This document shows, piece by piece, positions 6,046 through 50,283 of a stretch of 64,000 bases of DNA; position 1 is the stretch's first letter; the number at the start of each line of letters is the position of its first letter. Origin of the DNA: an uncultured Pseudomonadota bacterium (GTDB lineage Bacteria; Pseudomonadota; Alphaproteobacteria; Acetobacterales; Acetobacteraceae); NCBI GenBank assembly GCA_963708095.1, contig OY970182.1, forward strand, positions 2,355,345-2,419,344, written 5' to 3'. Both the position numbers and the translations under genes were made by a program. The notes under the pieces were generated by a model. That model had not been told where the DNA came from, did no database searches, and saw only the letters and a program-made list of their open reading frames with translations.

Positions 6046-8687
6046 CTGATCGTCTCCGTCACAGGACGCATCGGCGTCGTGGACCAAGCGGCACCGTCTC
6101 CGAAGGGCAGCATGGGCTGCGCGGGATCGGGGCCGATATCGGCGACGGACGCAGCTTCGCCGATGACGGCAGGGTCGTCCGGGATACTCGTCGCGGTTGC
6201 TATTCCATGCGCGAACAGCGCCGCTGCCCAATCGAGCCCGCGCTCGCGCAGCCAGGCCGCCGGGAATGCGGCGAGCCCATGCCGTCCCAGAACGCGGTCG
6301 ATTGCGGCCAGATCTTCCGCCCGGCTCGCGCCACAGAAGGCGAGTGCGATCTCGCCGAGGCCGAGTTCGAACAGTCGGCAGCCGGCGGCGGACTGGAACC
6401 AGTAGTCCCGCTTCGGAACCGCGCGCGCGATCGTCTCGATCTGCCGGTCATTCAGGCCGAGGCGGGCGTAGGCGTCGCGGCTCTCCGGCTCGATCGCCCG
6501 CGCGTTCGGCAGGAAGATGCGGGAGAGGCAGCTCTCGATGACGGTCGGCGCGACCGGCGAACGGGTGATGTCAGCCAGGCTCTGGGTCGAGAAGAGGACG
6601 GAGGTGTTCTTCCGCCGCAAGGTCTTCAGCCACTCACGCAGCTTCGGCGCGAAGATCGGATCGTCGAGTGCGAACCACGCCTCATCCACGGCGATCAAGG
6701 TCGGGCGCCCGTCCAGCCCCGCCTCGATGCGGTGGAACAGGTAGGTCAGCACGGCGCGGGCGGCGTGTTTGGAGCCGAGCAGGTCCTCGGTCTCGAAGGC
6801 CAGCACGTCGGCGTCTCCGACGCTCTCCTGCTCGGCATCCAGCAGACGGCCGAACGGGCCGGCGATGGTGTACGGTTCGAGCGCCGCCTTCAGCCTGTTG
6901 GCTTGCAGCAGTGCGGTGAAACCCGACAGCGTGCGCTCGGGCACCGGTGCCGTGGCGAGCGAGCCGAGCGCTGACCAGATGGCGCCGCGGACCTCCGGCG
7001 TCAGCTCGATGCTCTCCTGGACCAGCAAGGTCGCAATCCATTCCGCCGCCCAGGCGCGCTCGGCGGGATCGTCGATCCGCGCCAGCGGCTGGAAGGCAAC
7101 GGCCTGCTGATGCTGGTACGAAACCTCGCTGCCGAGGGCGAGATCGTGAAATGCGCCGCCCATGCCGAGCGCCGTGGCCTTGGACGAACGACCCTTGTCG
7201 AAGATCACCACGCGCGCGCCAGGGTAGCGGCGGAACTGCAGGGCGATCAGCGCGAGCAGCACGCTCTTGCCCGCGCCGGTGGGCCCGACGATCAGCGTGT
7301 GGCCGACATCGCCCTGGTGCAGCACGAGGCGGAACGGCGTCGATCCCGCGGTGTGCGCGATCAGCAGTGGCGGGCCGTCGAGATGGGCGTTGCGCTCCGG
7401 CCCGGCCCAGACTGCAGAGAGCGGCAGCATGTGGACGAGGTTCAGCGACGAGACCAGCGGCTGGCGGATGTTGGCGTAGCACTGGCCGGGCAGGCTGGAG
7501 AGCCAGGCCTCGACCGCGTTCAGCGTCTCCTCGACCGCGACGAAGCCCTGGGCGCGCACCGCGCGGCCGACCAGCCGGACCTTCTCGATGACAGCGGCTT
7601 CGTCGGTATCCCAGACCGTCACCGTCGCGGTGAAATAGCCGAAGCTGACGGCGTCCGAGCCGAGCTCCTGCAACGCCGTGTCGGCGTCCACCGACTGGTT
7701 CTCGGCGTCGGAATCGACCAGCCGCGTCTCCTGCTGCCAGACCACCTCGCGCAGCAGGGCGGCGATGCCCTTGCGCTTGGCCCACCAGTGCCGGCGCTTC
7801 TTGCCGAGTTCCTTCTGCGCCTCCGCCTTCTCGAGCGGCAGCCAGCGCGCGACCCAGCGGTATTCGATGGGCAGCCGATTGAGTTCGTCCAGCAGCCCCG
7901 GCCAGGTGCGGTCCGGCAGGCCGCGCAGGGTGAGCGTGCGGAGATCGCAGCGCCCGAGCATCGGCGCGATGCCCGGGGTGAGGTCGCAGTCCGGCAGCAG
8001 CCCGTCGAGGTAGAACGGCACTTCGGGAACAGCGACCGGATGCCGCCCGTTGGTCGAGATCGTGAAGTGCAGATAGGCCAGCGTGCCGGCGTCATCGAGC
8101 CAGGCGCAGTCCGGCATGAGCGCGGCCAGCAGGTCCAGCACGCGATCGGTCTCGGCCGCAAAGGCGTCGAGGATGCCGCGCCAGTCGATGTCGCCAGGCT
8201 CGCCTGGTGCCCGCGCCCCGCTGTTCCGACCGTCATCACCCCGGTCATAAAGCAGCCGGTTGGCCCGTTCGGCGCGCTCGGGCGGCGCGAGGAAGCAGAA
8301 GGTCAGGAAATATCCGCTCTCGAAATGCGCACCCTCCTCTTGGAAGGCGTGCCGCCGCTCCTCGTCGATCAGCCAGGACACCGGATCGGGGAAGCGGCTC
8401 TCGGGATAGCCGGGCGCGGCGGAGCGCGCCGCCTCGACAAAGATCGCCCAGCCCTCGCCGAGGCGTTTGAGCGCGTTGTTGACCCGTGCGGCGACTGCGA
8501 TCAGCTCGGCCGGCGTGCTGGCATCGAGGTCCGGCCCGCGGAACCTTGCGGTGCGCTGGAGTGCACCGTCCTTGTTCAGCACGATCCCCGGGCCGACCAG
8601 CCCCGCCCATGGGAGGAAGTCGGCGAGTTCCCGGCGCCTGGTGCGATATTCCCGGAGGTCGAGCATGGCCGGCGGCTCCTCCGTCAC
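6042..8687 (-). CDS. trbE: Conjugal transfer ATPase TrbE (VirB4-like)
   Basis: 881 aa with Walker A IVGPTGAGKSVLL and Walker B LIAVDEAW. Confidence 0.95.
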   Translation of the reverse strand: MTEEPPAMLDLREYRTRRRELADFLPWAGLVGPGIVLNKDGALQRTARFRGPDLDASTPAELIAVAARVNNALKRLGEGWAIFVEAARSAAPGYPESRFPDPVSWLIDEERRHAFQEEGAHFESGYFLTFCFLAPPERAERANRLLYDRGDDGRNSGARAPGEPGDIDWRGILDAFAAETDRVLDLLAALMPDCAWLDDAGTLAYLHFTISTNGRHPVAVPEVPFYLDGLLPDCDLTPGIAPMLGRCDLRTLTLRGLPDRTWPGLLDELNRLPIEYRWVARWLPLEKAEAQKELGKKRRHWWAKRKGIAALLREVVWQQETRLVDSDAENQSVDADTALQELGSDAVSFGYFTATVTVWDTDEAAVIEKVRLVGRAVRAQGFVAVEETLNAVEAWLSSLPGQCYANIRQPLVSSLNLVHMLPLSAVWAGPERNAHLDGPPLLIAHTAGSTPFRLVLHQGDVGHTLIVGPTGAGKSVLLALIALQFRRYPGARVVIFDKGRSSKATALGMGGAFHDLALGSEVSYQHQQAVAFQPLARIDDPAERAWAAEWIATLLVQESIELTPEVRGAIWSALGSLATAPVPERTLSGFTALLQANRLKAALEPYTIAGPFGRLLDAEQESVGDADVLAFETEDLLGSKHAARAVLTYLFHRIEAGLDGRPTLIAVDEAWFALDDPIFAPKLREWLKTLRRKNTSVLFSTQSLADITRSPVAPTVIESCLSRIFLPNARAIEPESRDAYARLGLNDRQIETIARAVPKRDYWFQSAAGCRLFELGLGEIALAFCGASRAEDLAAIDRVLGRHGLAAFPAAWLRERGLDWAAALFAHGIATATSIPDDPAVIGEAASVADIGPDPAQPMLPFGDGAAWSTTPMRPVTETIR

Positions 8688-8956
8688 ACGTCCAGATGGC
8701 GCCGCGCGGCGCGCAGATGCCGTGCGAACACCGGCCCGAACTGCGGGTCCTGACGGGTCAGGAACAGTGCCGCGGCATGGCCGATCAGGTAGATCGCGAT
8801 TCCGGCGATCCAGAGCTGGAGGCCAAGCCCGATCGCGGCGGCAAGCGTGCCGAGGGCGATCGCCATGCCGCGCGGCACGCCGCCGAGCAGGATCGGCTCA
8901 GTCAGGCTGCGATGCAGCGGCACCGACCACCCGGGAATGTCCGCGGGACCCTTCAT
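8684..8956 (-). CDS. trbD: Conjugal transfer protein TrbD (VirB3-like)
   Basis: 90 aa from MKGPADIPGWSVPLHRSLTEPILLGGVPR. ATGA overlaps with trbC on one side and trbE on the other. Confidence 0.85.
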   Translation of the reverse strand: MKGPADIPGWSVPLHRSLTEPILLGGVPRGMAIALGTLAAAIGLGLQLWIAGIAIYLIGHAAALFLTRQDPQFGPVFARHLRAARRHLDV

Positions 8957-9285
8957 CCGACCAGCGCCCCACCGGAGAAGTTGAAGAAGGTCAGGAAGAA
9001 GCTCGCGGCGGCGAAGGCGATCGACAGGCCGAACACGATCTGGATCAGGCGGCGCATGCCGCCGGAGGTCTCGCCGAAGGCGAGGCCCAGGCCCGTGCCG
9101 ATGATGATCAGCACGGCGATGATCTTCGCGACCGGCCCCTGCACGGAATCGAGGATCTGCTGCAGCGGCTGCTCCCACGGCATGTTCGACCCTGCCGCGA
9201 AGGCGGAGCCCGGCCAGAGCAGCACCAGCGCAATGAGGGCGGCCGTGCACTGCTGCCCATGACGAAGGATGGTCTTCGGGTTCAC
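8953..9285 (-). CDS. trbC: Pilin precursor TrbC (VirB2-like)
   Basis: GTG start overlaps the trbB stop (GTGA at 9282-9285). Signal sequence plus two hydrophobic helices. Confidence 0.8.
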   Translation of the reverse strand: MNPKTILRHGQQCTAALIALVLLWPGSAFAAGSNMPWEQPLQQILDSVQGPVAKIIAVLIIIGTGLGLAFGETSGGMRRLIQIVFGLSIAFAAASFFLTFFNFSGGALVG

Positions 9286-31347: not shown

Positions 31348-32343
31348 TCACAAGGCCTTCAGGAAGGCCATGAGATCCTTGTCCTCCTTCCATGAGCGAG
31401 CGGGCCGTGGCTGTCCCACTTCGCAGAGCGCAACAGCGTTGGCTTTCAGCGTGAGGTCGATCTCGGCATAAATATTGGTCGTGCTGATCGAGACGTGTCC
31501 GAGCCAAGCGCGGATGGTGTTGATGTCCACGCCGGCGAGGACCAAGTGGCAGGCCGTTGTGTGCCGGATCACGTGCGGGGTTATCGTTCGGCCGGCCAGT
31601 TCCGGGACTTGGGCCGCACAGCGCTCGATCAGGCGGTAGACCCCGAAGCGGGTAAACGGCGTCCCGAGCCGGCTGACGAACACGGAGTCTTCGCCCGCAC
31701 GACCGATGATCTCGTCCATCAGGACGCGCTCGGTTTCCGGCCACAGCGGACACTGGCGCGTCCTACCGCCCTTACCGTGCAAGTTGGCCAGATCGTGCCC
31801 GCCGTTCCGCGACCCGATTTGCAGATCGCGCACCCTCAGCTGGGTGGCTTCGGAGACTCTTGCGCCGGTGTTGTAGAGGAAGAGCAGAAGCGCGTACTCG
31901 CTCCGGCCGCGCCGGGTCTTGCGGTCGGGCGTCGCCAGCATCGCCTCCATCTCCGCCCGTGTCAGCCATCCGACTGGCGGCGGCATAGACCTCTTCGACG
32001 CGATGGCCCGGATGTGACCGCACCACTCGACAAGGGTCGGATCCCGGCTGCCGACGAAGCGCGCGAACGCCCGGATGGCGGCAAGCCGCTGATTGCGGGT
32101 CCGCGCGGAGCAACCTCGATCCGTCTCGAGATGAGCGAGGAACTGCAGCACGTGTCCGGACGTGAGGTCCGATACGGCCAGCCGGTCCACGGGCTTGCGC
32201 GCTTTCCGGCTGACGAAGGGCAGCAACAGGCTGAAGGTGTCGCGGTAGCTTTTGCGGGTGTTCCGGGCGAGATTGCGTTCAGTGACGATGTGCTCGGTGA
32301 GGAACCGGCGGAGCCAGGGGCCGAGGATTGAGAGGTCAGGCAT
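31348..32343 (-). CDS. ritC: Tyrosine recombinase, third gene of the trio (RitC-like)
   Basis: MPDLSILGPWLRRFLTEHIVTERNLARNTRKSYRDT...HVIRHTTACHL...LGHVSISTTNIYAE. The start overlaps the ritB stop by 8 nt. Confidence 0.85.
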   Translation of the reverse strand: MPDLSILGPWLRRFLTEHIVTERNLARNTRKSYRDTFSLLLPFVSRKARKPVDRLAVSDLTSGHVLQFLAHLETDRGCSARTRNQRLAAIRAFARFVGSRDPTLVEWCGHIRAIASKRSMPPPVGWLTRAEMEAMLATPDRKTRRGRSEYALLLFLYNTGARVSEATQLRVRDLQIGSRNGGHDLANLHGKGGRTRQCPLWPETERVLMDEIIGRAGEDSVFVSRLGTPFTRFGVYRLIERCAAQVPELAGRTITPHVIRHTTACHLVLAGVDINTIRAWLGHVSISTTNIYAEIDLTLKANAVALCEVGQPRPARSWKEDKDLMAFLKAL

Positions 32344-33286
32344 GCCGACCTCCCGCCGCATAGTGGGCGAACCGCAGCGACGCCTGTTCCAGCAGCTCCG
32401 GCGTCATCGACAGATAGACCTTCGTGCCCTCCAGATCGGCGTGACCGAGATAGGTGGAGAGCACCGGCAGCAGCCGTTGCACATCGGCGCCCTGCCGATA
32501 CCAGCTCGTCAGGCGATGGACAGCGAAGCTGTGACGAAGATCGTGCAGCCGCGGGATTGTCCGGCCGCCTGCCGCGCGGTGGACCCCGGCGACGCGCCGC
32601 AGCGCGTCGAACGCGGCCTGCACGGTGCTGCTCGCGAGCCGCGTTCCATCCTGGTTCGCCAAGAGCAACGCATTCTGGCCGTCCACAAGCCCGGCTTGCC
32701 GGTGCTGGGACACGTGGCTGTCCAGCACCGCGGCAAGCTGTGCCCCGACCGGGACCAGCCGGCTCTTGTAGAACTTCGTGGCCCGGATGGTCAGGACGGC
32801 GTTCGCCAGATCGACGTCGGCCAAGGTGAGGCGAGTCGCCTCCCCGAAGCGTAACCCCGCGCCGTACAGCACGAGAAGCAAGGTGCGGAACGTCGCCGCA
32901 TCCAGCTGAACCGCGCCGCGCCGGCTTGCCTCCAGGGTCGCGGGATCGAAGAGGCGCGCAAGCTCATCGCGCGAGTAGATGTAGGGCGGCGCCCGGACGG
33001 GCGATCTCGGCGCATCGTCCGGCATCGGCCAGTGAGTGGCGTGGCCGCGGCTGATCGCGTGACGCCAGAAGCCGGCAAGCGCGTAGTACTTGTTCTCGCG
33101 GTGACGCGTTGGCGGGCCCTCGCCCGCCAGGTAGGCGAGGAGCTGCCCCGTGGTGATCGCGTCGCAGGCGGCGTCGCCATCGGCGTGGTCGAGGAAGCGG
33201 CGCAGGAGATTCGCCGCGGTCGTGTACTTCGCGCCGTGAGCCCGTCGCCATAGGATATATCGCTCGATTGCCTCACGCAGGATCAT
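32336..33286 (-). CDS. ritB: Tyrosine recombinase, second gene of the trio (RitB-like)
   Basis: 316 aa from MILREAIERY. HDLRHSFAVHRL...LGHADLEGTKVYL. ATGA overlap with the ritA stop. Confidence 0.85.
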   Translation of the reverse strand: MILREAIERYILWRRAHGAKYTTAANLLRRFLDHADGDAACDAITTGQLLAYLAGEGPPTRHRENKYYALAGFWRHAISRGHATHWPMPDDAPRSPVRAPPYIYSRDELARLFDPATLEASRRGAVQLDAATFRTLLLVLYGAGLRFGEATRLTLADVDLANAVLTIRATKFYKSRLVPVGAQLAAVLDSHVSQHRQAGLVDGQNALLLANQDGTRLASSTVQAAFDALRRVAGVHRAAGGRTIPRLHDLRHSFAVHRLTSWYRQGADVQRLLPVLSTYLGHADLEGTKVYLSMTPELLEQASLRFAHYAAGGRHA

Positions 33287-34635
33287 ACAAGGCCCTCCAG
33301 GTCGAGAGCGGCCACCTCGCGAAGCGCGACGAGGTCGACCTTGGCGTAGATCGTGGTGGAGGACGGATCGCGATGGCCGAGGAAGTCCCCGATCACCTTC
33401 ATCGACGTGCCCTGATCCAGCAGATGCTGGGCCGCCGCATGCCGCAGGGCGTGGGCGCCGCGTCGGCCGGTGACGACGCCGATGCCCGCCAGCCGGTCGC
33501 GGACCATCTTGCCCAGGGCTTTTCGGTCGAGCGGCCGGATCGGCGCATGCATCGTGAAGAAGAGGCTGCGTCCGAAGCCGGACGGCCGCGCCTCCCTGAT
33601 GTAGCGCAGGATGGCATGGCCCACGCCCTGCGACAGCGGCCACAGATGGGTTCGGCCCGGTTTCGGGCAGCGGACCCGAAGCATGGCGTTCTCCCAGTCC
33701 AGATCGTCCAGCCGCAGGCCGCCGACCTCTCCGGTCCGAAGCCCGTACCCGATGAACAGCATCAGGATAGCCCGGTCGCGCCTGTCGACCGGGCGATCAC
33801 CTCCAACCGACGCCAGCAGGCGCACGACATCCTCGCGCGGCAGCCCCTTCGGCACGGTCTCGTCGGCCATGAACCGGGGCGCCATGATCCCTGCTGCGAC
33901 GCCCGCTCGGCACCAGCCGCGCGTCTCGGCGAACAAGAAGAAGGCCCTCAGACGCTGCGCATAATCGTGTCTCGTACGGCGGCCCCAGGCGCCTCGCCCG
34001 AGCTCCGTCGCTACGGCATCGTCGATGTCGGTCATTCCTACGGCAATCAGCGGTGTGCCTCTTCCCGCCAGCCATAGGAAGAAGCGGTCGGCAGCCCGAC
34101 AATAGTCGTGCACGGTCGCCGCAGAGAGACCGCGTTCCTCGCGCATCCACCGCTCGAAGGCGCGGACCTCGGCGTCATGCGGATGGCGACGGTCGTCGGG
34201 TTCATCAAGCCAGCCCAGGAAGGCGAGCCATCGAACACCGTGGCTGACGAAGCGGTCGCGCGTCTTGGGCGACGCGGTCCGATCGCAGCGGCGTCCCCTC
34301 GGCTGCGACCACAGCACTGCAGCAGCCTCGATCTGCGACGGACTTACCCGCTCGCCATCTTCAAGGTCCAGAAGGCGCACCAGGCTCAGCTGATCGTTGG
34401 CGCACTTTCGCAGGGTCGATCGCCTCGCGCCGGTCGCCTTGAGATGAACGAGGTATCGTTCCCGCTGCTCCGCGAGCGGCGCTGCGCGATACCTCTTGGC
34501 GGTGTGGGGGAAGAAGATGTCGTCGAACACGTTGGCCTCCACGTTGTTGAAGGCTTGAGCTTCTCGACGGAGCGGGACGGCGGAAGCTATGTTGATCGCA
34601 CGCGAGGCCTTTCGTCCGGCGCGAGCTGGACGCAC
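33283..34635 (-). CDS. ritA: Tyrosine recombinase, first gene of the trio (RitA-like)
   Basis: HALRHAAAQHLL...LGHRDPSSTTIYAK. Start uncertain: the ATG at 34635 overlaps the Toprim copy B 3' end, and a GTG near 34542 is an alternative. Confidence 0.8.
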   Translation of the reverse strand: MRPARAGRKASRAINIASAVPLRREAQAFNNVEANVFDDIFFPHTAKRYRAAPLAEQRERYLVHLKATGARRSTLRKCANDQLSLVRLLDLEDGERVSPSQIEAAAVLWSQPRGRRCDRTASPKTRDRFVSHGVRWLAFLGWLDEPDDRRHPHDAEVRAFERWMREERGLSAATVHDYCRAADRFFLWLAGRGTPLIAVGMTDIDDAVATELGRGAWGRRTRHDYAQRLRAFFLFAETRGWCRAGVAAGIMAPRFMADETVPKGLPREDVVRLLASVGGDRPVDRRDRAILMLFIGYGLRTGEVGGLRLDDLDWENAMLRVRCPKPGRTHLWPLSQGVGHAILRYIREARPSGFGRSLFFTMHAPIRPLDRKALGKMVRDRLAGIGVVTGRRGAHALRHAAAQHLLDQGTSMKVIGDFLGHRDPSSTTIYAKVDLVALREVAALDLEGLV

Positions 34636-40660: not shown

Positions 40661-41572
40661 TCACGCCATCGGCGTGACGCTCTTAATGAGTTCATCAGCC
40701 AACCTCCTGACCTCCGTCCGTCGAGCTTCGACTTCACCGCGGTTGTCGAGAACCAGTTGAATCCTCTTAGGCGCGAGTTGCTCGGGATCGAGATCCAGGT
40801 TCAGCTGGCTTTCCAGATAGTATGAGGAACACACAGAAGTTGTGACTTCGAGCGCCCCGTGGCGCATTCCATGATCCCGCTCGACGGCGACGCGCATGGC
40901 CGGCGACAACCGGGGATTTGCAACGAGCCGCATCTTTAGGGGCTCCTTCCATTCTAGGTCCCATTTGCTGCGCGCGACGGTTGGTCCCATCTCTCCGAAC
41001 TGGCTCAGCCGGCCAATGACAAAGTCGCGAAAGCCCTGACTGCGGAAACAGAAGGCGCGGATGTGCCAGCGCTGGCCGTCGAAGCCGAGTGCATGCGGCG
41101 CAATGGTCCGAACCGACGCCTCGTCGCTGGAGAACGACAGATAGCGCACTTTGATTTGAAGCTGCTCCCGGATGCACTGGATCAAACGGCGAAGGACTTC
41201 CGGATCGTAGTGGCGCCTGATCCTCGGAGCGCCGGCAAAGTCCGGCGGCCGCCCGATCCAGGAGTCCCCGGGGCCAAGGCCGCCCGTGCTGATCGACCTG
41301 AGCTGGGCGAGGTAGCCGTCGGCCGAGGGCGTGATCAGCTTCGGCTGAAACTCAGGACCGGCCACGTAGGTCTTCGCGGTCTTGTCGTAGGCCAAGTTGC
41401 CGGGAGCCAGATGGTCATAGCGCGCTAGGTCTTGGGACGCTTGCGGCACGCTGATGCCGAAGAATTCCACCAAGTCCGACCGGTTGATGCGCCCCTCCCA
41501 GTAGAGCCTCAGCTCGATGAAGGTCAGCCTGCGTTCGATGTTCCAGCGCAGACGTGCTCGCCCCTCTTCCAT
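40661..41572 (-). CDS. wHTH-WYL domain transcriptional regulator (CapW/BrxR-like)
   Basis: Start at MEEGRARLRW (GGAGG 6 nt upstream). wHTH LVEFFGISVPQASQDLARY. WYL core IAPHALGFDGQRWHIRAFCFRSQGFRDFVIGRL. Confidence 0.85.
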   Translation of the reverse strand: MEEGRARLRWNIERRLTFIELRLYWEGRINRSDLVEFFGISVPQASQDLARYDHLAPGNLAYDKTAKTYVAGPEFQPKLITPSADGYLAQLRSISTGGLGPGDSWIGRPPDFAGAPRIRRHYDPEVLRRLIQCIREQLQIKVRYLSFSSDEASVRTIAPHALGFDGQRWHIRAFCFRSQGFRDFVIGRLSQFGEMGPTVARSKWDLEWKEPLKMRLVANPRLSPAMRVAVERDHGMRHGALEVTTSVCSSYYLESQLNLDLDPEQLAPKRIQLVLDNRGEVEARRTEVRRLADELIKSVTPMA

Positions 41573-41605: not shown

Positions 41606-41636
41606 TTGACCCGTCTCGAAAAACAACCCATATAGT
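41606..41636 (+). promoter_or_regulatory. Candidate sigma70-type promoter of the Ubl operon in the divergent intergenic region
   Basis: TTGACC (41606-41611) and TATAGT (41631-41636) are 19 nt apart. CATATA at 41629 gives 17-nt spacing. The region is AT-rich. Confidence 0.4.
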
Positions 41637-41683
41637 TTTTTTCCCCATCCTGGGGGCGGGTGGTGGCTGCAGAGGACACGAGG

Positions 41684-42103
41684 ATGATGGGCGCCGAACG
41701 CGATGACGATGAATTGGAGCGCGAGGAGGATTGCCTCTTGAAGGAGGACCAGGAGCGCCTGGCGCGCGACGTGGAGCGCCTGAAGGAAGGCGAAGCGCGG
41801 ATCGAAGAGGACCGGAAGGATATCGAGCGCGATGAGGCCCGCCGCGAGCGGCGGCTCCGGATCGAACTGCTGGTCATCGTCAGCGGCGACGAGGTGAAGA
41901 TCAAGGCGAAGCCCGACGAGTTCCTGTCCAAGGTTGCTGAGCAAGCGCTGGAGAAGAGCGAACATACCGGTCGGCCCCTGTCGGATTGGGTGATGCGCAA
42001 CGAAGCCGGCGACGTGCTCGACGTGAGCCGGACGGTGGAGTCCTACGGGCTGAAGGACGGCGACATCCTCTCGCTGACCCTCGAAGCCGGGGTCGCTGGG
42101 TGA
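41684..42103 (+). CDS. Ubiquitin-like (beta-grasp) protein with a hypercharged N-terminal extension and C-terminal Gly
   Basis: 139 aa from the ATG (GAGGA upstream; the track start GTG 41660 is possible). The C-terminal ~80 aa LRIELLVIVSGDEVKIKAKPDEF...SYGLKDGDILSLTLEAGVAG-stop is beta-grasp-like. First gene of the E2/JAB/E1 operon. Confidence 0.75.
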   Translation: MMGAERDDDELEREEDCLLKEDQERLARDVERLKEGEARIEEDRKDIERDEARRERRLRIELLVIVSGDEVKIKAKPDEFLSKVAEQALEKSEHTGRPLSDWVMRNEAGDVLDVSRTVESYGLKDGDILSLTLEAGVAG

Positions 42104-42645
42104 ACGAACAAGTCGTCGATCCGGCGGTTTCCCGGGCCAAGTTCGAACGTGAGCTCCACGCCTTCCAACAGCTAAAGGCCATGCATCGGCGACGCGGCTG
42201 GTGGGTCAGGTCGGCGGAGTTCCCCGTCGTCGAAGTGGCGTTCTTGACGCCAGCTTGCCGCCCCGCTGCGATCGCAGCCTGCGTCAGGATCGACTTCACC
42301 AATTATGACCTATGGCCGCCATCAGTGGTGTTCGTTGACCCGTTTTCCGGGGCCGCCCTGACCATCGACCAGATCACTACCCCATTCGCCCGGATGACGC
42401 CGAGTGGCCCGCAGCGCCTAGTGCAAGGCCATCCGGGTCAGCCGGCGTTTCTGTGCTTGCCGGGCGTGCGGGAGTACCACAACCATCCCGGTCACAGCGG
42501 GGACGATTGGCTTCTGCACCGCGGCGCCGGCGAAGGCGGTCTTCAGTTTCTGGTCGACAAGATCTCCACCTACGGATCGGAAAGCGTGACCACTTGGGGA
42601 GTGCAGATGCAGGTGATCCTTCAGCAGCAACAACTCCCCGCATGA
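42100..42645 (+). CDS. Prokaryotic E2-like (UBC-fold) conjugating enzyme
   Basis: GTG start in a GTGA overlap with the Ubl stop. Candidate catalytic Cys in QPAFLCLPGVREYHNHPGH. Confidence 0.75.
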   Translation: MNEQVVDPAVSRAKFERELHAFQQLKAMHRRRGWWVRSAEFPVVEVAFLTPACRPAAIAACVRIDFTNYDLWPPSVVFVDPFSGAALTIDQITTPFARMTPSGPQRLVQGHPGQPAFLCLPGVREYHNHPGHSGDDWLLHRGAGEGGLQFLVDKISTYGSESVTTWGVQMQVILQQQQLPA

Positions 42646-43157
42646 TGGTCAGTCTCACGACCGTGGAGCGGGTCCTCGTCCCGCGCAAAATCGCGGACGA
42701 TACGCAAGCCCATCTGCGCAACGTCGGCCGAAATGGCCTAGAGGGGATGGCACTTTGGGCCGGAGAGCTCGACGGAGCCGACTTCCTCGTTCGCGCCGCC
42801 GTGATCCCCCAGCAGCAGGGCCACCGCACCGAACATGGCATAGCCGTTTCCGTCCCCGGCTTCGAATTGCATCGGATCAACATGTGGCTGCACCGTAACC
42901 GGCTGCGACTCATCGCCCAGATACACAGCCATCCGACCGAGGCCTATCACAGCGACACAGATGACCGGTACGCTATCGTTACGGCGCTCGGCTCTTTGTC
43001 GCTGGTCGTGCCCGATTTCGCCGTGCGGCCGTTCGCCTTGAACGACTGCGCTGGCTACCGCCTGTCCACGCCGCCCTGGTGGCGGCTTTCCAGTAGGCCT
43101 CAATGGCGCGCCTTGCCGTTTGAGGAATTGACCCGAACCATTCAAGTCATGTCCTGA
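42642..43157 (+). CDS. JAB/MPN (JAMM) metallopeptidase
   Basis: ATGA overlap with the E2 stop. JAMM motif IHSHPTEAYHSDTD and upstream Glu in GLEGMALWAG. Confidence 0.9.
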   Translation: MMVSLTTVERVLVPRKIADDTQAHLRNVGRNGLEGMALWAGELDGADFLVRAAVIPQQQGHRTEHGIAVSVPGFELHRINMWLHRNRLRLIAQIHSHPTEAYHSDTDDRYAIVTALGSLSLVVPDFAVRPFALNDCAGYRLSTPPWWRLSSRPQWRALPFEELTRTIQVMS

Positions 43158-43160
43158 CCC

Positions 43161-44777
43161 ATGGCCGCCGCCAACTTCTTTGATCGAGCGCTGATGAGCG
43201 CTGCACAGGCGCTGCAAGGCGCCGATCCCGCCCAGGTTCAAGCCGAGCTTGACGGCCACGTGGTCGAACTGGCCTGGGATCGGCGCGCCGCTCAAACCGT
43301 GGAAGGTCAGGCGGCGCTCGACCTCGGCGTTCGTCTGTTGGCGCGCCTTTATCCGGTTTTGCGCCTGTCGCCATTGGACGCGGCGGCGGCCGGTCGCCGC
43401 GCCGGCTTAGAAGCGCTCGCCCTATCCATCAATCCCGCGATTGAGCTGAGTAGCGCCGCCGAGAGTACCGTCCGTTTGGTCTTCGGCGACACTGCTGTCG
43501 CCGCCGGCCCGGTGACGATCTACGCTGGCTCCAACGGCTGGCTGGCCAAGGCTTCGACGCGCCGGCCCCAGGGTATCGGATCCACGCTCTTACCGTTCGG
43601 CGCCGGCGGCGCAGCCTGCCTCGGCGCGGCGAACGTCTTTCGGGCAATCTTCGCGAACCGACTGCCGTCTGCGGCCCTAGACGAGAAGGCCGCGCTGTCG
43701 ATGCTGGACTTCAGCACTGGCCGCCAGGCGACCCAAGGGCCGACGATGCTCGATGTCGATCTGGGGCTGACGCCATTGGTCGGCGTGGGTGCAATTGGCA
43801 ACGGCGTTATCTGGGCGCTGGCTAGAGCGCCGGGGCTGAAGGGCGTCTTGCATCTGATCGACCATGAGCAAGTCGAACTTTCGAACCTTCAGCGCTACGC
43901 CTTGGCGACGCAGACCGACGTTGGCCGGGTGAAAGTCGAAATCGCTCGAGATGCGCTTGTCTCCAACTCCTCCTCTCTCACGCCCATGCCGTTCACGGCG
44001 CGCTGGGATGAGTATCAGGCGGGGCGCGGCCACGCGGTTCTGAAACGCGTCCTCGTCGCGCTGGATACGGCACGGGATCGGATCGCCGTTCAGGCCGCGT
44101 TACCCGGGCGCGCGTTGAATGCCTGGACGCAGGTTGGCGACCTGGGGATTTCGAGGCACGATTTTCTTGGCGAGGAGGCCTGCCTAGCCTGCCTGTATCT
44201 GCCGAAGGGCGCGGCGCCTCATGAAGACGAATTAATCGCCCAGGCGCTGGGACTTTCAACGGAAAGACCAGTGCTGCTCGATCTGCGCAACCGTCTGATC
44301 GGCAACGAGCCCGTGGGCGAGGCCTTCGTCCGCGAGACCGCAGCGCGAGTGGGCGCGCCTGCTGATACGCTATTAGGATTTGCTAACGATACGTTACGGC
44401 AGTTCTACGTCAAGGCGGTTTGTGGTGGGCTACTCCTGAAGCCAAATAGCGGCCGGCCGCCGCTCGAAGCGCCGCTTGCCTTTCAATCGGCGATGGCGGG
44501 GATCATGTTGGCCGCCGAAACCGTCGCTGATGCGGGCAGCCTAAGGGCAACACCTTCCGTTACAAAAACCATCCTGGACATAACCCGCCCGTTGGCGTCA
44601 CACCTCAACGTCCGAGTGCTCAAGTCCGCGCCGTCAGCCGGGCCTCGGTGCATCTGCCAGGATCAGGACTTCGTGACGGTCTATCGCCAAAAGCACGGCA
44701 TGCCTGAACCCGAGCCAGCCGTGGACTCCAGTCGCCATCACGCACCCAAATGCGGGCCTAGCGAACTTCCGCTATGA
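43161..44777 (+). CDS. E1-like (ThiF/UBA-family) activating enzyme
   Basis: 538 aa with GVGAIGNGVIWAL and DHEQVELSNLQRY (adenylation domain). There is an extra N-terminal ~200-aa domain and a Cys pair in EEACLACLY. Confidence 0.85.
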   Translation: MAAANFFDRALMSAAQALQGADPAQVQAELDGHVVELAWDRRAAQTVEGQAALDLGVRLLARLYPVLRLSPLDAAAAGRRAGLEALALSINPAIELSSAAESTVRLVFGDTAVAAGPVTIYAGSNGWLAKASTRRPQGIGSTLLPFGAGGAACLGAANVFRAIFANRLPSAALDEKAALSMLDFSTGRQATQGPTMLDVDLGLTPLVGVGAIGNGVIWALARAPGLKGVLHLIDHEQVELSNLQRYALATQTDVGRVKVEIARDALVSNSSSLTPMPFTARWDEYQAGRGHAVLKRVLVALDTARDRIAVQAALPGRALNAWTQVGDLGISRHDFLGEEACLACLYLPKGAAPHEDELIAQALGLSTERPVLLDLRNRLIGNEPVGEAFVRETAARVGAPADTLLGFANDTLRQFYVKAVCGGLLLKPNSGRPPLEAPLAFQSAMAGIMLAAETVADAGSLRATPSVTKTILDITRPLASHLNVRVLKSAPSAGPRCICQDQDFVTVYRQKHGMPEPEPAVDSSRHHAPKCGPSELPL

Positions 44778-45077: not shown

Positions 45078-45731
45078 ATGCAGTTGAACGCCGATCTCCC
45101 CCATCCCGCCGCGGTCGATAGCGCGGCGCTCGCCTGGGGTGCCTCGCCCATGACGGGGGTGGAGCGGCGGATGCTCGAGCGCGACGGCGACGAAGTTGCC
45201 CGCGCCGCCTCGCTCGTGCGCTACGCGCCCGGCTCCGCCTTCTCCGCCCACACCCACGGCGCCGGCGAGGAGTTCCTGGTGCTGGCGGGCGTGTTCTCCG
45301 ACGAGACCGGGGATTTCCCGGCCGGCTTCTACGTCCGCAACCCGCCCGGCTCGCGGCACATGCCCGCCAGTGCACGGGGCGCGGTGATCCTGGTCAAGCT
45401 CCGCCAGATGCCGCCCGAGGAGACCGAGGCGGTGCGGCTCGACACGCGCGATCCCGCGCTCTGGCGCGACCTCGGGCAGGGCCGGCGTGAGGCTGTGCTG
45501 TTCCAGGCGCCGTGGGAGCGGGTGGTGATGTTGCGGCTTGCGCCCGACCATGCCGGCGCCGCCGAGACCTGGCCGCGCGGCGTCGAACTCTTCGTGGTCG
45601 AGGGCGATGTCGTGATCGACAGCACGACCCATCGCGCCGGCGCGTGGCTCCGCCGGCCGCCCGGCAGCCGCCTGACGCTGGCAAGCCAGGGCGGGGCGCT
45701 GCTCTACCGCAAGACCGGCCATCTCGGCTGA
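45078..45731 (+). CDS. ChrR-like cupin domain protein
   Basis: WGASPMTGVERRMLERDGDEVARAASLVRYAPGSAFSAHTHGAGEEFLVLAGVFSDE...YVRNPPGSRH. Confidence 0.7.
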   Translation: MQLNADLPHPAAVDSAALAWGASPMTGVERRMLERDGDEVARAASLVRYAPGSAFSAHTHGAGEEFLVLAGVFSDETGDFPAGFYVRNPPGSRHMPASARGAVILVKLRQMPPEETEAVRLDTRDPALWRDLGQGRREAVLFQAPWERVVMLRLAPDHAGAAETWPRGVELFVVEGDVVIDSTTHRAGAWLRRPPGSRLTLASQGGALLYRKTGHLG

Positions 45732-45737
45732 CGCAGG

Positions 45738-46792
45738 GTGCCGGACCTGATCGTCATCGGCGCCGGCCTTTCCGGCTTGGCGCTGGCGCGGGCGGCGACC
45801 GGGCGCGGCGCCGAGGTGGTGGTGCTGGAAGCCCGCGCGCGCATCGGCGGCCGGGTGCTGAGCCATCGCACCGCGGCCGGCGCCTACGACCTCGGCCCTG
45901 CCTGGGTCTGGCCCGCCATGCAGCCGCGCATCGCCCGGGCCGTGCGGGCGGCGGGGCTGGCGCTCACCGAGCAGGCGGAGGCGGGCGGCTTCGTCTTTCA
46001 GGACCAGACGGGGCGCATACAGCGCCTGCCGCATGGGTTCGCGCAGGAGCCGCCGAGCATGCGCATCACGGGCGGCATCGCGGCGCTGGTGGAAGCTGTC
46101 GCCGCCGGCCTCGCCCCGGGGTGGTCCGGCTGGAACACGCGGTCCGGCGCATCGCGCTGACCGGAAGCGGCGTTGCCGTCACCGCCGAAAGCTCCTCCGG
46201 CCCCGTGATGCTGTATGCCGCGCGCGCCGCGCTCGCCCTGCCGCCGCGCCTGATCGCTGGGATCGAGATCCTGCCCGACCTGCCACCGTCCGTGCAGGCG
46301 GCGCTTGCTGCTGTGCCGGGCTGGATGGCGGGCCAGGCCAAGGTGCTGGCGCTCTACAACCGGCCGTTCTGGCGCGAGGCGGGCCTGTCGGGCAGCGCAT
46401 TCAGCCAGGCGGGACCGCTCGGGGAACTCCACGATGCGAGCCTCGCCGGCGCCGCCGAGGCTGCGTTGTTCGGCTTCTTCTCCTGGCCACCCGCCCTGCG
46501 CGCGGGGCGACGCACGGCCTTGCCGGAGCTGGTCGCCCGCCAACTCGGCATGCTGTTCGGCGCCGAGACCGCTCGGCCGCGCGAGGTGATCATCCAGGAC
46601 TGGGCAACCGAACCCTTCACCGCGACCGAAGCCGACCACGCCAACGGCAACGTGCATCCGGACTATCGCCCGATCGCCCTGCCGGCGCCGTGGGGCGAAC
46701 GGATTACCCTCGCCGGCGCCGAAATGGCCCCCGAATTCGGTGGCTATCTGGAGGGCGCGCTCGCCGCGGCCGAGGCCGCCACTATCGCGTGA
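45738..46792 (+). pseudogene. FAD-dependent amine oxidase with an apparent frameshift
   Basis: The GTG start gives DLIVIGAGLSGLALA (FAD GxGxxG). The frame ends at 46160, while the rest of the protein (VVRLEHAVRRIAL...YLEGALAAAEAA) continues in another frame from about 46117. The switch lies in CCCCGGGG (46114-46121). Confidence 0.65.
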
Positions 46793-47098: not shown

Positions 47099-48241
47099 AT
47101 GTCGAACAATTCTATGAGCATTGATGCGCCTGCATTGGGTGGGTTCGACCCGGCTGCATCGCAGTTTTCTGTGTATCTCGATGCGTCGGGATGTTCGCCC
47201 AACACCGCGCGCGCATATGCTCAAGATCTTTCGCATCTTCGATCCTTTCTGGTTGAACAAGGTTTGGAATGGCCGAGCCTCACGCCCGCGCTTGCGGTCG
47301 ATCTGCTGCTTCACCTTCGGAGCAAGCGGAGCCATCGTCGCGGTGCTGCCCAGTATCCCTCGCTCGCGACAGTCAACGGCGAGCGGGGCGCACGTCTCAG
47401 CACCGCGACGATCAACCGGGTGTTGGCCGCCGTGTCATCATTCTACGAGTGGGGCAGGATCACCGAGCGGTTCGATGGCCCTAACCCGATCACCCGTGTT
47501 CACGATCGCGCCGCCGCTCGGGTCTCGGAACGTCATCGGCCGTTCCTGACCGGCGTTGTGCCACCGCGCCAGATACGCAGCCCGGTGCGGCTACGGCAGG
47601 TACATCGCGTGCCCCGCCCGATGTCGAATGAGGACATCGACGCGCTGATCGCGCAGCTCCGCTGCCGTCGCGATCTGGCGATAATTCGCCTGATGCTCGA
47701 CGGTGGTCTTCGTCCCGGCGAAGTGCTTGGCCTTCATCTGATCGATCTCGCCTACGGCAGACGGCGGGTGATGATCAGGGTCCGCTTCGATCATCCGCGC
47801 GGCGTGCGCAGCAAATCTAGAACCGAGCGCGTAGTCGATCTCCACGAGGCGGCGACACTGGAAGCTGTAAGCGCCTATGTGATGCGCGAGCGGCCGCAGG
47901 ATACCGATACTCCGCACCTCTTCCTCGTTGGCGGACGCGGCCCGCGCCGGCATGAGGCATTGTCCTATTCCGCGTTGGTCAGGCTGTTCGCGCGGGCCTG
48001 CACCCGCGCTGGCATTCGGACGCCGTGGATTACACCACACGCGCTGCGCCACACCCATGCGACCCGCATGTGGGAGGGCGGCATGCGCGAGCTGACGCTC
48101 CAGCGACGGCTTGGCCACGCCTCGCCCGAAGCGACCCGCGTCTACACACGCGTTTCGGACCCGATCGTCGTCGCTGAGTATCGACGCGCTCTCGGCCTCG
48201 GCGACGCGCCTGCAACCGAGCCGGGGACCACAGCGTCGTGA
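47099..48241 (+). CDS. Tyrosine recombinase (smaller subunit)
   Basis: 380 aa. HALRHTHATRMWEGGMRELTLQRRLGHASPEATRVYTR. Confidence 0.9.
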   Translation: MSNNSMSIDAPALGGFDPAASQFSVYLDASGCSPNTARAYAQDLSHLRSFLVEQGLEWPSLTPALAVDLLLHLRSKRSHRRGAAQYPSLATVNGERGARLSTATINRVLAAVSSFYEWGRITERFDGPNPITRVHDRAAARVSERHRPFLTGVVPPRQIRSPVRLRQVHRVPRPMSNEDIDALIAQLRCRRDLAIIRLMLDGGLRPGEVLGLHLIDLAYGRRRVMIRVRFDHPRGVRSKSRTERVVDLHEAATLEAVSAYVMRERPQDTDTPHLFLVGGRGPRRHEALSYSALVRLFARACTRAGIRTPWITPHALRHTHATRMWEGGMRELTLQRRLGHASPEATRVYTRVSDPIVVAEYRRALGLGDAPATEPGTTAS

Positions 48242-50283
48242 GAGCGGGCCCGGTCTCGGCCGCCGCAATGCAGGCGCGCGCAGTCGAGGAGCCGCGGAAC
48301 AATCGGAGCCGTCACTGCTCGGCGGACGAGTATGACGCGTTTCTCGCCGGTTGCGAGGTCGCCAAGCACTTCGTCCAGCAGCGCCGCAGTCATCGCAAGC
48401 TCTTCGTGCAAGCCTGGCCTGATCTCGAAGAGTGGCTTCACGCACCACTTGCCGATCGCATTGGCCGAATGGACGGGCAGACACGACGCACGCTCACCAA
48501 CCGGCCATCCTATTACGCGCGCGCCTATCTCTATTATCTGGCGCTCAACGGTCATCTGCGTCTCGACTATCCGTGGCTGCTCGCGATTGGCGACCTGTGT
48601 GTCCATGATGTCGCCTATCATATGCGCCTTGATCTGGGGGCGGATACGCTCGCGACCGAGGCCGCCGCGCTCGGCCTTCGCTGCGAGAACGCGAAGCTTG
48701 CGATGCGTTGGACGCTGGGCCGCATCGCCGTTCACGGCGGTCCACAATCGATCGACAGGCTCAATGACAACGACATCGACCAGATGCTCGTCGCGGTTCG
48801 CGAGTTCAGCAAGCGGCCAGATCTTGCCGCTTACTGGACGTCGGCCGAGCGTTATTGGCAGGTTTCCAAGAGCTGGATCACGAAGATCGGCCAGCTCAGG
48901 CTCGTGCTCTATCATCGCGGCCAGGTTCAGGAGGTACCGCGTAAGATAATGCCGTCGGCTGACCTGTGTGCGGGGCAACCGGCGATGGGCGTGCTGGTCG
49001 ATGCGTGGCTTGAACGTCGTGCGCCTGCCTTGCGACCAGCGACCACATATCATTATGCGCTGACGGCACGCCGGTTTCTCGGGCATCTCGCCGAGTCCCA
49101 TCCGCAGGTCCAGACCTTCGCCGACGTAAAGCACGATCACATTGTCAGCTGGATGGATGCGATGGCGACCGAGCTGTCGCCGACGACGGGACGGCCGCTC
49201 ACCGCACGGTCGCAGCGTGAGCGCGTCATTCGTCTGGCGCAGTTTTTCAAGGATGCTGAGGATTGGGCATGGCACAACGTGCCGAGATGGCCGCTGATCG
49301 CCAAGCGCGATCTACCGCGCGTCCCAGACCGCATACCACGTTACATTCCTCGTGCTGACCTCGAACGACTGATGGATGCTGTCAGGGCGCTGCCCGACCC
49401 GTTTCAGCGGGCTGCGATGATCGTCGCACGCTGGTCGGGCGCGCGGCGCAGCGAGGTGCGGCGTCTTACGACCGACTGCCTCAACAACTATTCCGATGGC
49501 ACGGCCCGACTGCGCATCCCGGTCGGCAAGACCGCACGCGAACGTATGATCCCACTCCATGACGAAGCGGCCGACGCTCTGCGCGCGGTGCTGGCAATCC
49601 GCGCGGAGGTCGCCGACCGGCGCTTGCCCGACGAGCGAACCGGCGATCTGGTCCGGTTCGTGTTCGTCTGGCGAGGCAAGCTTATGAGCGATCGGCATCT
49701 GTTCGGAACGCCGCTTAGGCGCGCATGCGAAGCAGCGAGTCTTGTCGACGCTGTCGGCAAACCGACGATCACCATGCATCGCTTTCGCCATACGCTCGGC
49801 ACCGAACTTGCCGAGCGCGGCGCGAAGCTGCACACGATCATGAGCATCCTCGGCCATGAGAGTCCACAGATGACGATGGTCTATGCGCGGATAAGCGATG
49901 CCGAGGTATTGCGCGACTATCGCTCGGTGCTCGAACCAGGCGCCGTGATCGCGGGTGCGGGAGCCGAGGCGATCCGCGCCGGCGCCCTCTGCGACAGTGC
50001 GATCGATTGGTTGCGCACCAACTTCCTGAAGACCGAGCTCGAGCTGGGGCATTGCCTGCGGCTGCCCTCGGAAGGGCCGTGCGAATGTGATCTCTATCTG
50101 AGTTGCTCGCGGTTCGTGACGACGCCAACTTATGCTCCGAGGCTGCGAGAGCGCCACCGGCTCGAACTGTCTCTTGCAGACGATGCCCGCGAGCGGTCCT
50201 GGCCGCGGGAGGTCGAGCGGCACTGCTCGGTCGCCCGCCGTATCGAGCAGTTGCTCACAGATCTTGGACAAGGAGTAGATTGA
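48238..50283 (+). CDS. Tyrosine recombinase (large subunit)
   Basis: 681 aa. GTG start in a GTGA overlap with the upstream stop. HRFRHTLGTELAERGAKLHTIMSILGHESPQMTMVYAR. Confidence 0.9.
   Translation: MRAGPVSAAAMQARAVEEPRNNRSRHCSADEYDAFLAGCEVAKHFVQQRRSHRKLFVQAWPDLEEWLHAPLADRIGRMDGQTRRTLTNRPSYYARAYLYYLALNGHLRLDYPWLLAIGDLCVHDVAYHMRLDLGADTLATEAAALGLRCENAKLAMRWTLGRIAVHGGPQSIDRLNDNDIDQMLVAVREFSKRPDLAAYWTSAERYWQVSKSWITKIGQLRLVLYHRGQVQEVPRKIMPSADLCAGQPAMGVLVDAWLERRAPALRPATTYHYALTARRFLGHLAESHPQVQTFADVKHDHIVSWMDAMATELSPTTGRPLTARSQRERVIRLAQFFKDAEDWAWHNVPRWPLIAKRDLPRVPDRIPRYIPRADLERLMDAVRALPDPFQRAAMIVARWSGARRSEVRRLTTDCLNNYSDGTARLRIPVGKTARERMIPLHDEAADALRAVLAIRAEVADRRLPDERTGDLVRFVFVWRGKLMSDRHLFGTPLRRACEAASLVDAVGKPTITMHRFRHTLGTELAERGAKLHTIMSILGHESPQMTMVYARISDAEVLRDYRSVLEPGAVIAGAGAEAIRAGALCDSAIDWLRTNFLKTELELGHCLRLPSEGPCECDLYLSCSRFVTTPTYAPRLRERHRLELSLADDARERSWPREVERHCSVARRIEQLLTDLGQGVD

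Follow-up and report, generated by a model that had tools for sequence, protein, structure and literature searches.

The window analysed here, that is, the whole stretch of 64,000 nucleotides, corresponds to 2.355-2.419 Mb of a single 5.15-Mb contig, so that the operon described below is chromosomal. At window positions 41684-42103 on the forward strand we found an open reading frame of 139 codons, bilA, and its translation returned exactly the frame and the peptide quoted in the initial annotation. It opens a co-directional series of genes with overlapping stop and start codons, in the order Ubl, CEHH-type E2, JAB and multidomain E1. The features are as follows.

40661..41572, - strand: divergent BrxR/CapW-type WYL transcriptional regulator (Pfam WYL 2.3e-12, PADLOC WYL 7e-18)
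41606..41636, + strand: conserved sigma-70-like putative promoter of bilA, TTGACC-N17-CATATAGT, near-invariant in 5 loci
41671..41676, + strand: Shine-Dalgarno sequence AGAGGA, 7 nt before the ATG at 41684
41684..42103, + strand: bilA, with ATG at 41684, Gly139 at 42098-42100 and TGA at 42101-42103; the stop overlaps the GTG start of bilB
41684..41854, + strand: charged heptad-repeat helix of BilA, residues 1-57 (AlphaFold2 helix 3-57, register, dN/dS)
41752..41782, + strand: 10-nt direct repeat GGAGCGCCTG, copies at 41752-61 and 41773-82, 21 nt spacing
41855..42103, + strand: single beta-grasp (DUF2604) to Gly139, plus the stop codon (Pfam, PDB matches, Foldseek)
42100..42645, + strand: BilB, E2 (formerly 'CEHH'), catalytic Cys motif FLCLPGVREYH (Metal_CEHH, 8TYZ_C)
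42642..43157, + strand: BilC, JAB/JAMM peptidase, HSHP...SDTD motif (Prok-JAB, PADLOC)
43161..44777, + strand: BilD, E1, inactive and active adenylation domains (8TYZ_A, Prok-E2_C and ThiF)

The three enzyme genes are labelled BilB, BilC and BilD by PADLOC. BilB matched Pfam Metal_CEHH (3.1e-45) and the E2 (BilB) chain 8TYZ_C (1e-40), with which its catalytic Cys and His are aligned within the motifs FLC(L/M)xGVREYH and PxHSGD. The matches of BilC were to Pfam Prok-JAB (8.8e-6) and to the PADLOC BilC model (9e-13), and the HxH...SxxD motif is retained. For BilD, the E1 (BilD) chain 8TYZ_A was matched at 9.4e-130 over residues 1-519, Cys421 aligning with the catalytic Cys417 of Ensifer aridi BilD; Pfam recognised Prok-E2_C (PF14459, the N-terminal inactive adenylation domain; 6.5e-37) and ThiF (1.7e-13). 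The gene order, the domains and the aligned E. aridi catalytic residues thus identify a Type II BilABCD (CEHH/6C) operon, the former CEHH/6C operon having been defined as Type II Bil by Chambers et al. (10.1101/2023.09.26.559546). The window protein is almost certainly BilA, the modifier of this operon, in its coiled-coil-NTD single-beta-grasp (CC-Ubl1) architecture. E1- and E2-dependent conjugation of the Ubl to lysines has been demonstrated for E. aridi only, where E1 and E2 were soluble only upon co-expression with the Ubl (Chambers et al.).

In BilA, Pfam DUF2604 covered residues 59-139 (E 9.7e-27; 93.7 bits against a cut-off of 25), and the tail preceding it had no Pfam match. AlphaFold2 likewise predicted one beta-grasp, at residues 60-133 after a helix (mean pLDDT 82). 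PDB sequence matches to BilA chains ranged from 7e-13 to 9e-14, and the best Foldseek match of the model was E. aridi BilA (8TYX_A; TM 0.90, rmsd 1.5 A, 36% identity), with ubiquitin, SUMO and NEDD8 ranking next. [quoted passage not shown] A literature search on DUF2604 found no papers. The protein ends in ...LEAGVAG-stop, as the initial annotation had noted in stating that the C-terminus is already Gly, and this terminal residue corresponds in the alignment to Gly97 of E. aridi BilA, which BilC cleavage exposes and which adenylation requires (Chambers et al.). The BilA of E. aridi TW10 (8TYX, 8TYZ), the prototype of Type II Bil, thus has a beta-grasp like that of the window protein, and its E1 and E2 are clear homologues of those in the window. 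It differs at both ends: E. aridi BilA has only about 15 N-terminal residues ahead of its fold, as against a helix of 57 residues in the window BilA, and it carries residues beyond the conserved Gly, which BilC removes, whereas the window BilA ends at Gly.

This helix had been described in the initial annotation as a charged, helix-prone extension of about 55 residues. The extension is real, although its length is 57-59 residues rather than 55. Residues 1-59 comprise 15 E, 13 R, 9 D and 3 K, that is, 68% charged residues with a net charge of -8. With an alignment of 12 sequences, AlphaFold2 predicted a single uninterrupted helix from residue 3 to 57, with block pLDDT values of 87-92 in its middle. 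The most divergent long-tailed homologue, P0008, was predicted to have the same build (helix 8-65, pLDDT up to 96), and in the monomer models of both proteins the helix is extended and points away from the beta-grasp. When the tail alone was compared with Pfam and with PDB sequences, only non-significant matches to coiled-coil peptides were obtained (SYNZIP6 at E 0.63, BAP29, Apg6 CC). An acidic helix acting as a DNA mimic was considered and rejected, given 16 basic residues and a net charge of only -8. The idea that Lys or Cys residues of the tail are conserved sites of catalysis or acceptors was likewise rejected, since K20, K34, K45 and C17 are not conserved.

The initial annotation had allowed that the charged region might be untranslated and the true start lie downstream of it, a proposal that can practically be dismissed. 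In-frame ATG, GTG or TTG codons before beta1 occur only at residues 1, 2, 11, 19 and 30. None is available between Val30 and beta1, the next being Val71, which lies within the fold; a functional Ubl must therefore include no fewer than about 28 helix residues. A purine-rich, Shine-Dalgarno-like site (GAAGGA, AAGGGA, GGAGA or similar) is present at the same spacing to the ATG in all seven loci compared, the window and six homologous ones. The conserved promoter also lies upstream of this ATG, so the transcript covers the part that encodes the tail. A GTG at 41660 was tried as an alternative start and rejected, since the 8 residues that it would add and their upstream context are not conserved, while the Shine-Dalgarno site serving 41684 is. 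Substitution rates pointed in the same direction. Among four close homologues the dN/dS of the tail was 0.07-0.21, compared with 0.05-0.17 for the beta-grasp; between distant homologues the dN of the tail was 2-3 times that of the beta-grasp, and dN/dS stayed below 1 wherever dS could be estimated. Judged by this coding-type constraint, the charged tail is translated and under purifying selection.

The promoter block TTGACC-N17-CATATAGT is kept in five loci (the window, L002, L011, L013 and L003) regardless of the type of tail. In the same five loci the coding sequences are only about 60-80% identical, and the block between the WYL gene and bilA is almost invariant. The block at 41606-41636 is probably both the promoter of bilA and the operator of the WYL regulator; a search of the intergenic region of the window for inverted repeats that could form an operator detected none. 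The regulator itself, whose start was placed at the ATG to which its homologues align, is 67-73% identical to the regulators beside homologous operons (WHD_BrxR, WYL and BrxR_CTD domains). A divergent BrxR/CapW-type WYL regulator was seen at every operon of the window's clade for which upstream sequence was available (L002, L011, L013 and L003). In the catalogue of Type II Bil operons (Table S1 of Gong et al.), the regulator columns are for CapP/CapH only, and the association of WYL regulators with Type II Bil therefore seems to be unrecorded.

Within the tail, the heptad-like spacing remarked upon in the initial annotation was confirmed. Leu, Ile or Val occupies one heptad position over 5-7 consecutive heptads in seven homologues, always in the same register relative to beta1. 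In the window protein this register extends over 5 consecutive heptads (L19, L26, L33, I40 and I47; shuffle p = 0.0035), and in three homologues the shuffle p-values of the stripe were 0.0007 to below 5e-5. Counted back from beta1, rows of seven in the window tail read RLARDVE, RLKEGEA, RIEEDRK and DIERDEA. The extension is conserved in homologues, both in its register and in its Shine-Dalgarno site and ATG. Each heptad has a single hydrophobic position ('d'), and the partner 'a' positions are Q, V, E, R and E. Because 'a' is mostly charged and 'd' alone is hydrophobic, any coiled coil would be weak. Opposite-charge pairs at i/i+4 were not enriched (13 compared with 12.3 +/- 2.5 in shuffled tails).

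Tails differ in length by one heptad exactly: those of the window, L006 and L002 are longer by this amount than those of four other homologues. In those four the gap of 7 residues, or 21 nt, falls exactly at the GGAGCGCCTG repeat. Tandem Repeats Finder found nothing in the DNA encoding the tail, and the heptad repeat is therefore not a recent tandem array at the DNA level. Steps of a whole heptad at a fixed register argue for an interface along the stripe. It could also be proposed that the tail is a tolerated low-complexity expansion produced by 21-nt slippage, with no specific function beyond solubility. The direct repeat flanking the one-heptad indel would fit such an origin, as would the great variability of tails in the family with its several gains and losses, and the raised dN of the tail between distant homologues. 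However, the dN/dS between close homologues is as low in the tail as in the beta-grasp, and register and motif are kept between proteins that are only 64% identical in the beta-grasp, so that we regard an expansion of this kind as very unlikely.

An exhaustive HMMER search with the beta-grasp gave 281 representative clusters at an E-value of 0.001 or lower. Among the best 150 of the 281 clusters, the beta-grasp was C-terminal in 118, and about ten of these had a charged helical tail; others among them had G/N-rich tails, extra beta-grasps or short tails. We then placed 131 beta-grasp domains (86 columns) on a tree, which was weakly resolved. The helix-tailed rows needed 10 changes on this tree, compared with 17 in shuffles, and the starred branches force at least 4. 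On this tree helical tails are thus found in at least four separate places. The window belongs to a clade (SH-aLRT 95) of 8 helix-tailed and 6 short-tailed rows that is apart from the clade of Bradyrhizobium nanningense BilA. The tails of the window's clade carry the motif R-[LIV]-x-x-D-x-E without a His/Gly-rich linker; in the Bradyrhizobium-type clade an (E/D)EAHRLE heptad is frequent, as is a His/Gly-rich linker ahead of beta1. Linkers of this kind, rich in His or in His and Gly (HDGHDGHGGHGGHGG and KHDHHDHGHH are examples), join the helix to beta1 in the helix-tailed Ubls P0134, P0086, P0135, P0082, P0130, P0089 and B. nanningense BilA. It could be a metal-binding element; compare the Ca2+-dependent filaments of Ubl3.

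A profile scan of genome contigs with the Ubl alignment found a single relative, in an Allosphingosinicella MAG, and its tail is G/N-rich. The operon of this MAG is close to that of the window, and its BilA (L003, 4878-5246) has a low-complexity tail rich in Gly and Asn, GGNGAGGNSGGGNGGGGNGNGGGN, which is of the 'LLPS-type' that had earlier been reported from Hymenobacter. The class-wide genome search gave matches in 2 of 401 genomes. The second of these (G089:C338:1103-1408, L005) is a remnant of a Ubl, 35% identical and with three in-frame stops, and apparently a pseudogene.

The sister operons vary in tail type, those of L011 and L013 having a short tail and that of L006 a long one, and throughout them, the window included, the E2 has 181-182, the JAB 171-172 and the E1 530-552 residues. 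The E2, JAB and E1 of the window are 75, 75 and 65% identical to those of the short-tailed L011 and 74, 74 and 63% identical to those of the long-tailed L006. The tail is thus modular. No partner domain co-varies with it, and this speaks against a docking site reserved for it on the enzymes of the operon and in favour of a role of the tag itself.

The same comparison bears on the proposal that the stripe docks onto another protein, either BilD, BilB or BilC in charging or autoinhibition, the WYL regulator, or a target or sensor. A conserved hydrophobic stripe does imply some interface, and the solubility of E. aridi E1 and E2 depends on the Ubl, so that contacts between Ubl and enzymes matter. 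On the other hand, in the sister operons with short K/D/G tails the E2, JAB, E1 and WYL proteins are equal in length and similar in identity, and most family members, presumably with the same enzymology, do without the tail. The monomer model also shows no fold-back onto the beta-grasp. We therefore consider docking unlikely. For autoinhibition, one of the roles suggested in the initial annotation, we found no support; the predicted helix lies away from the beta-grasp and the enzymes have the same lengths with or without the tail.

The initial annotation did not recognise this layout from known Bil Ubls. It had compared the protein with the tandem-beta-grasp Ubls of Type I Bil and so missed the layout, the operon being of Type II, for which Ubls with a coiled-coil NTD are already described. 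Gong et al. reported such Ubls in 5 of 134 Type II Bil operons, all from Bradyrhizobium, the coiled-coil NTD of CC-Ubl1 being assigned by PairCoil2. In the window tail we found a predicted helix and heptad periodicity, with one hydrophobic core position per heptad. Chambers et al. modelled a CC-NTD BilA as an antiparallel dimer (Supp. Fig. 4h-k). SEC-MALS of two CC-Ubl1 proteins showed one to be a homodimer and the other a monomer (Gong et al.). Judging by the sequence in which text and figures present the two, B. nanningense BilA is probably the monomer and the Type I Bub protein probably the dimer; no legend says which is which. We found no paper on the tail later than those of Chambers et al. 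and Gong et al.

The CC-Ubl1 BilA proteins of Bradyrhizobium (B. nanningense CCBAU 53390, B. sp. TSA1 and others) come from the same type of operon as the window protein. They share with it a single beta-grasp ending in ...AGVAG and a charged helical N-terminal region of roughly 50-80 residues, which in the published proteins is predicted to be a coiled coil. However, the 31% identity of B. nanningense BilA to the window BilA is confined to the beta-grasp and does not extend to an alignment of the tails, and the two proteins fall into separate, supported clades on the beta-grasp tree. The tail of B. nanningense has classical a/d positions, whereas the window tail has one hydrophobic residue per heptad. 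The setting differs as well, the window operon being ICE-borne and WYL-regulated in an Acetobacteraceae-like host. Given the different clade and the non-aligning tail, the window BilA represents a new lineage of the published CC-Ubl1 architecture.

The host was placed by its GyrB, which is 84-86% identical to that of alphaproteobacterial MAGs, 81% to that of Rhodopila and 72-74% to those of Gluconacetobacter and Acetobacter. The operon lies in an integrated conjugative element of this Acetobacteraceae-like host, with genes for a strawberry-notch-type helicase, a Toprim/DUF7146 protein and several tyrosine recombinases in the neighbourhood. In relatives of the operon, T4SS genes adjoin it (L001 and L013), as do the defence genes AbiE and Mrr. 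A megablast search of the operon against PLSDB plasmids gave no match. Two clusters of adjacent tyrosine-recombinase genes, three genes at 31348-34635 (-) and two at 47099-50283 (+), flank the Bil region; these are recombinase-in-trio-like elements within the conjugative element. We also noticed an interrupted amine-oxidase gene by a ChrR-cupin gene: its translation at 45738-46792 has 4 stops and its C-terminal part is in another frame (ORF 45512-46792), which is consistent with a frameshift. In the long-read metagenome contig L001, the E1 (7484-9005) was called as two ORFs of 81 and 414 residues, reflecting either a frameshift or an assembly error, and the operon adjoins TrbI/DUF2274 and a pair of genes for a UvrD helicase and a Y-family polymerase.

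With Gly139 as its last residue, BilA would be made ready for use. By homology with E. aridi, BilD (Cys421) would adenylate Gly139, BilB would receive the modifier and BilA would be joined to target lysines, leaving BilC (JAB) to act only as a deconjugase. The 57-residue helix would stand outside this enzymology as a modular payload on the tag, and its Leu/Ile/Val stripe would most likely pair weakly with the stripe of a second BilA. The two helices would more probably run antiparallel, since in a parallel dimer E37, R44 and E51 would each face their own copy. BilA would then be a bivalent tag, and its conjugation may cross-link or mis-assemble the modified proteins, presumably those of phage or another invader.

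In this way the helix would play the role of the extra beta-grasps in Type I Bil and Ubl3 proteins. In the BilA of Type I Bil, with its ISG15-like tandem beta-grasps, and in Ubl3 the tag is likewise enlarged, or is multivalent or self-associating. The extra mass there consists of added beta-grasps, in Ubl3 with Ca2+-mediated filaments, whereas in the window protein it is a helix; the window BilA has neither a Ca2+ site nor a second beta-grasp, as there is one DUF2604 match and one such fold in the AlphaFold2 model.

Taken as a whole, the combination of BilA identity with a payload helix that pairs weakly with itself through the stripe, probably in antiparallel fashion, is the reading that we favour, albeit tentatively. 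In its favour, a stripe kept in one register in seven homologues and an indel of exactly one heptad imply an interface. Against it, one of the two published CC-Ubl1 proteins is monomeric, probably the closer relative B. nanningense BilA, and the AlphaFold2 monomer model equally fits a single stable helix. Oligomerisation had been put forward in the initial annotation together with filament formation; the former agrees with published speculation and fits the conserved stripe, but for filaments we found no support.

It is also possible, though doubtful, that the tail is a monomeric, stiff and charged single helix of about 8 nm, which would serve as an acidic spike and block the assembly or interactions of the target sterically and electrostatically. 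The tail resembles the ER/K single alpha-helix (SAH) of the myosin VI/X and caldesmon type, a long isolated helix rich in E, R, K and D. Its abundance of E, D, R and K, its net negative charge and the charged 'a' positions would suit a spike, and ladders of R(c)-D(g) at i+3/i+4 can be read along the helix. A straight isolated helix was predicted in two divergent homologues, one published CC-Ubl1 protein is monomeric, and other members of the family bear other bulky tails (extra beta-grasps, G/N-rich). The resemblance to an SAH goes no further, however: D is common and K rare in the tail, the i/i+4 pairs of opposite charge are not enriched over shuffles, and the strictly periodic, conserved Leu/Ile stripe is untypical of ER/K helices and would be exposed to solvent without reason.

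More generally, we offer as a speculation, and one more probably wrong than right, that charged heptad helices are a recurrently evolved, length-tunable payload of Ubls, and that defence works through the physical properties of the tag and not through its recognition. The length of the payload would shift by whole heptads through 21-nt slippage, and in the ICE-borne clade of the window BilA would act as a bivalent cross-linker or as an 8-nm acidic spike.

[quoted passage not shown] Here, natural sister operons differ almost only in the N-terminal tail of the tag, with a long helix in some, a short K/D/G tail in others and a G/N-rich tail in yet others, and with enzymes about 60-75% identical to those of the window they allow the bulk, charge or valency of the tag to be tested as the effector. 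The layout itself was described in 2023-2024, and the locus leaves the picture in the existing literature unchanged. With it, helix-tailed BilA gains an independent lineage, the second, that lies outside Bradyrhizobium, and the locus further contributes evidence of purifying selection on the tail, a strict heptad register, length variation by whole heptads and near-isogenic operons with variant tails. If the tail is indeed a payload in the sense proposed, tail swaps would be a direct route to what bacterial ubiquitination does to its targets.
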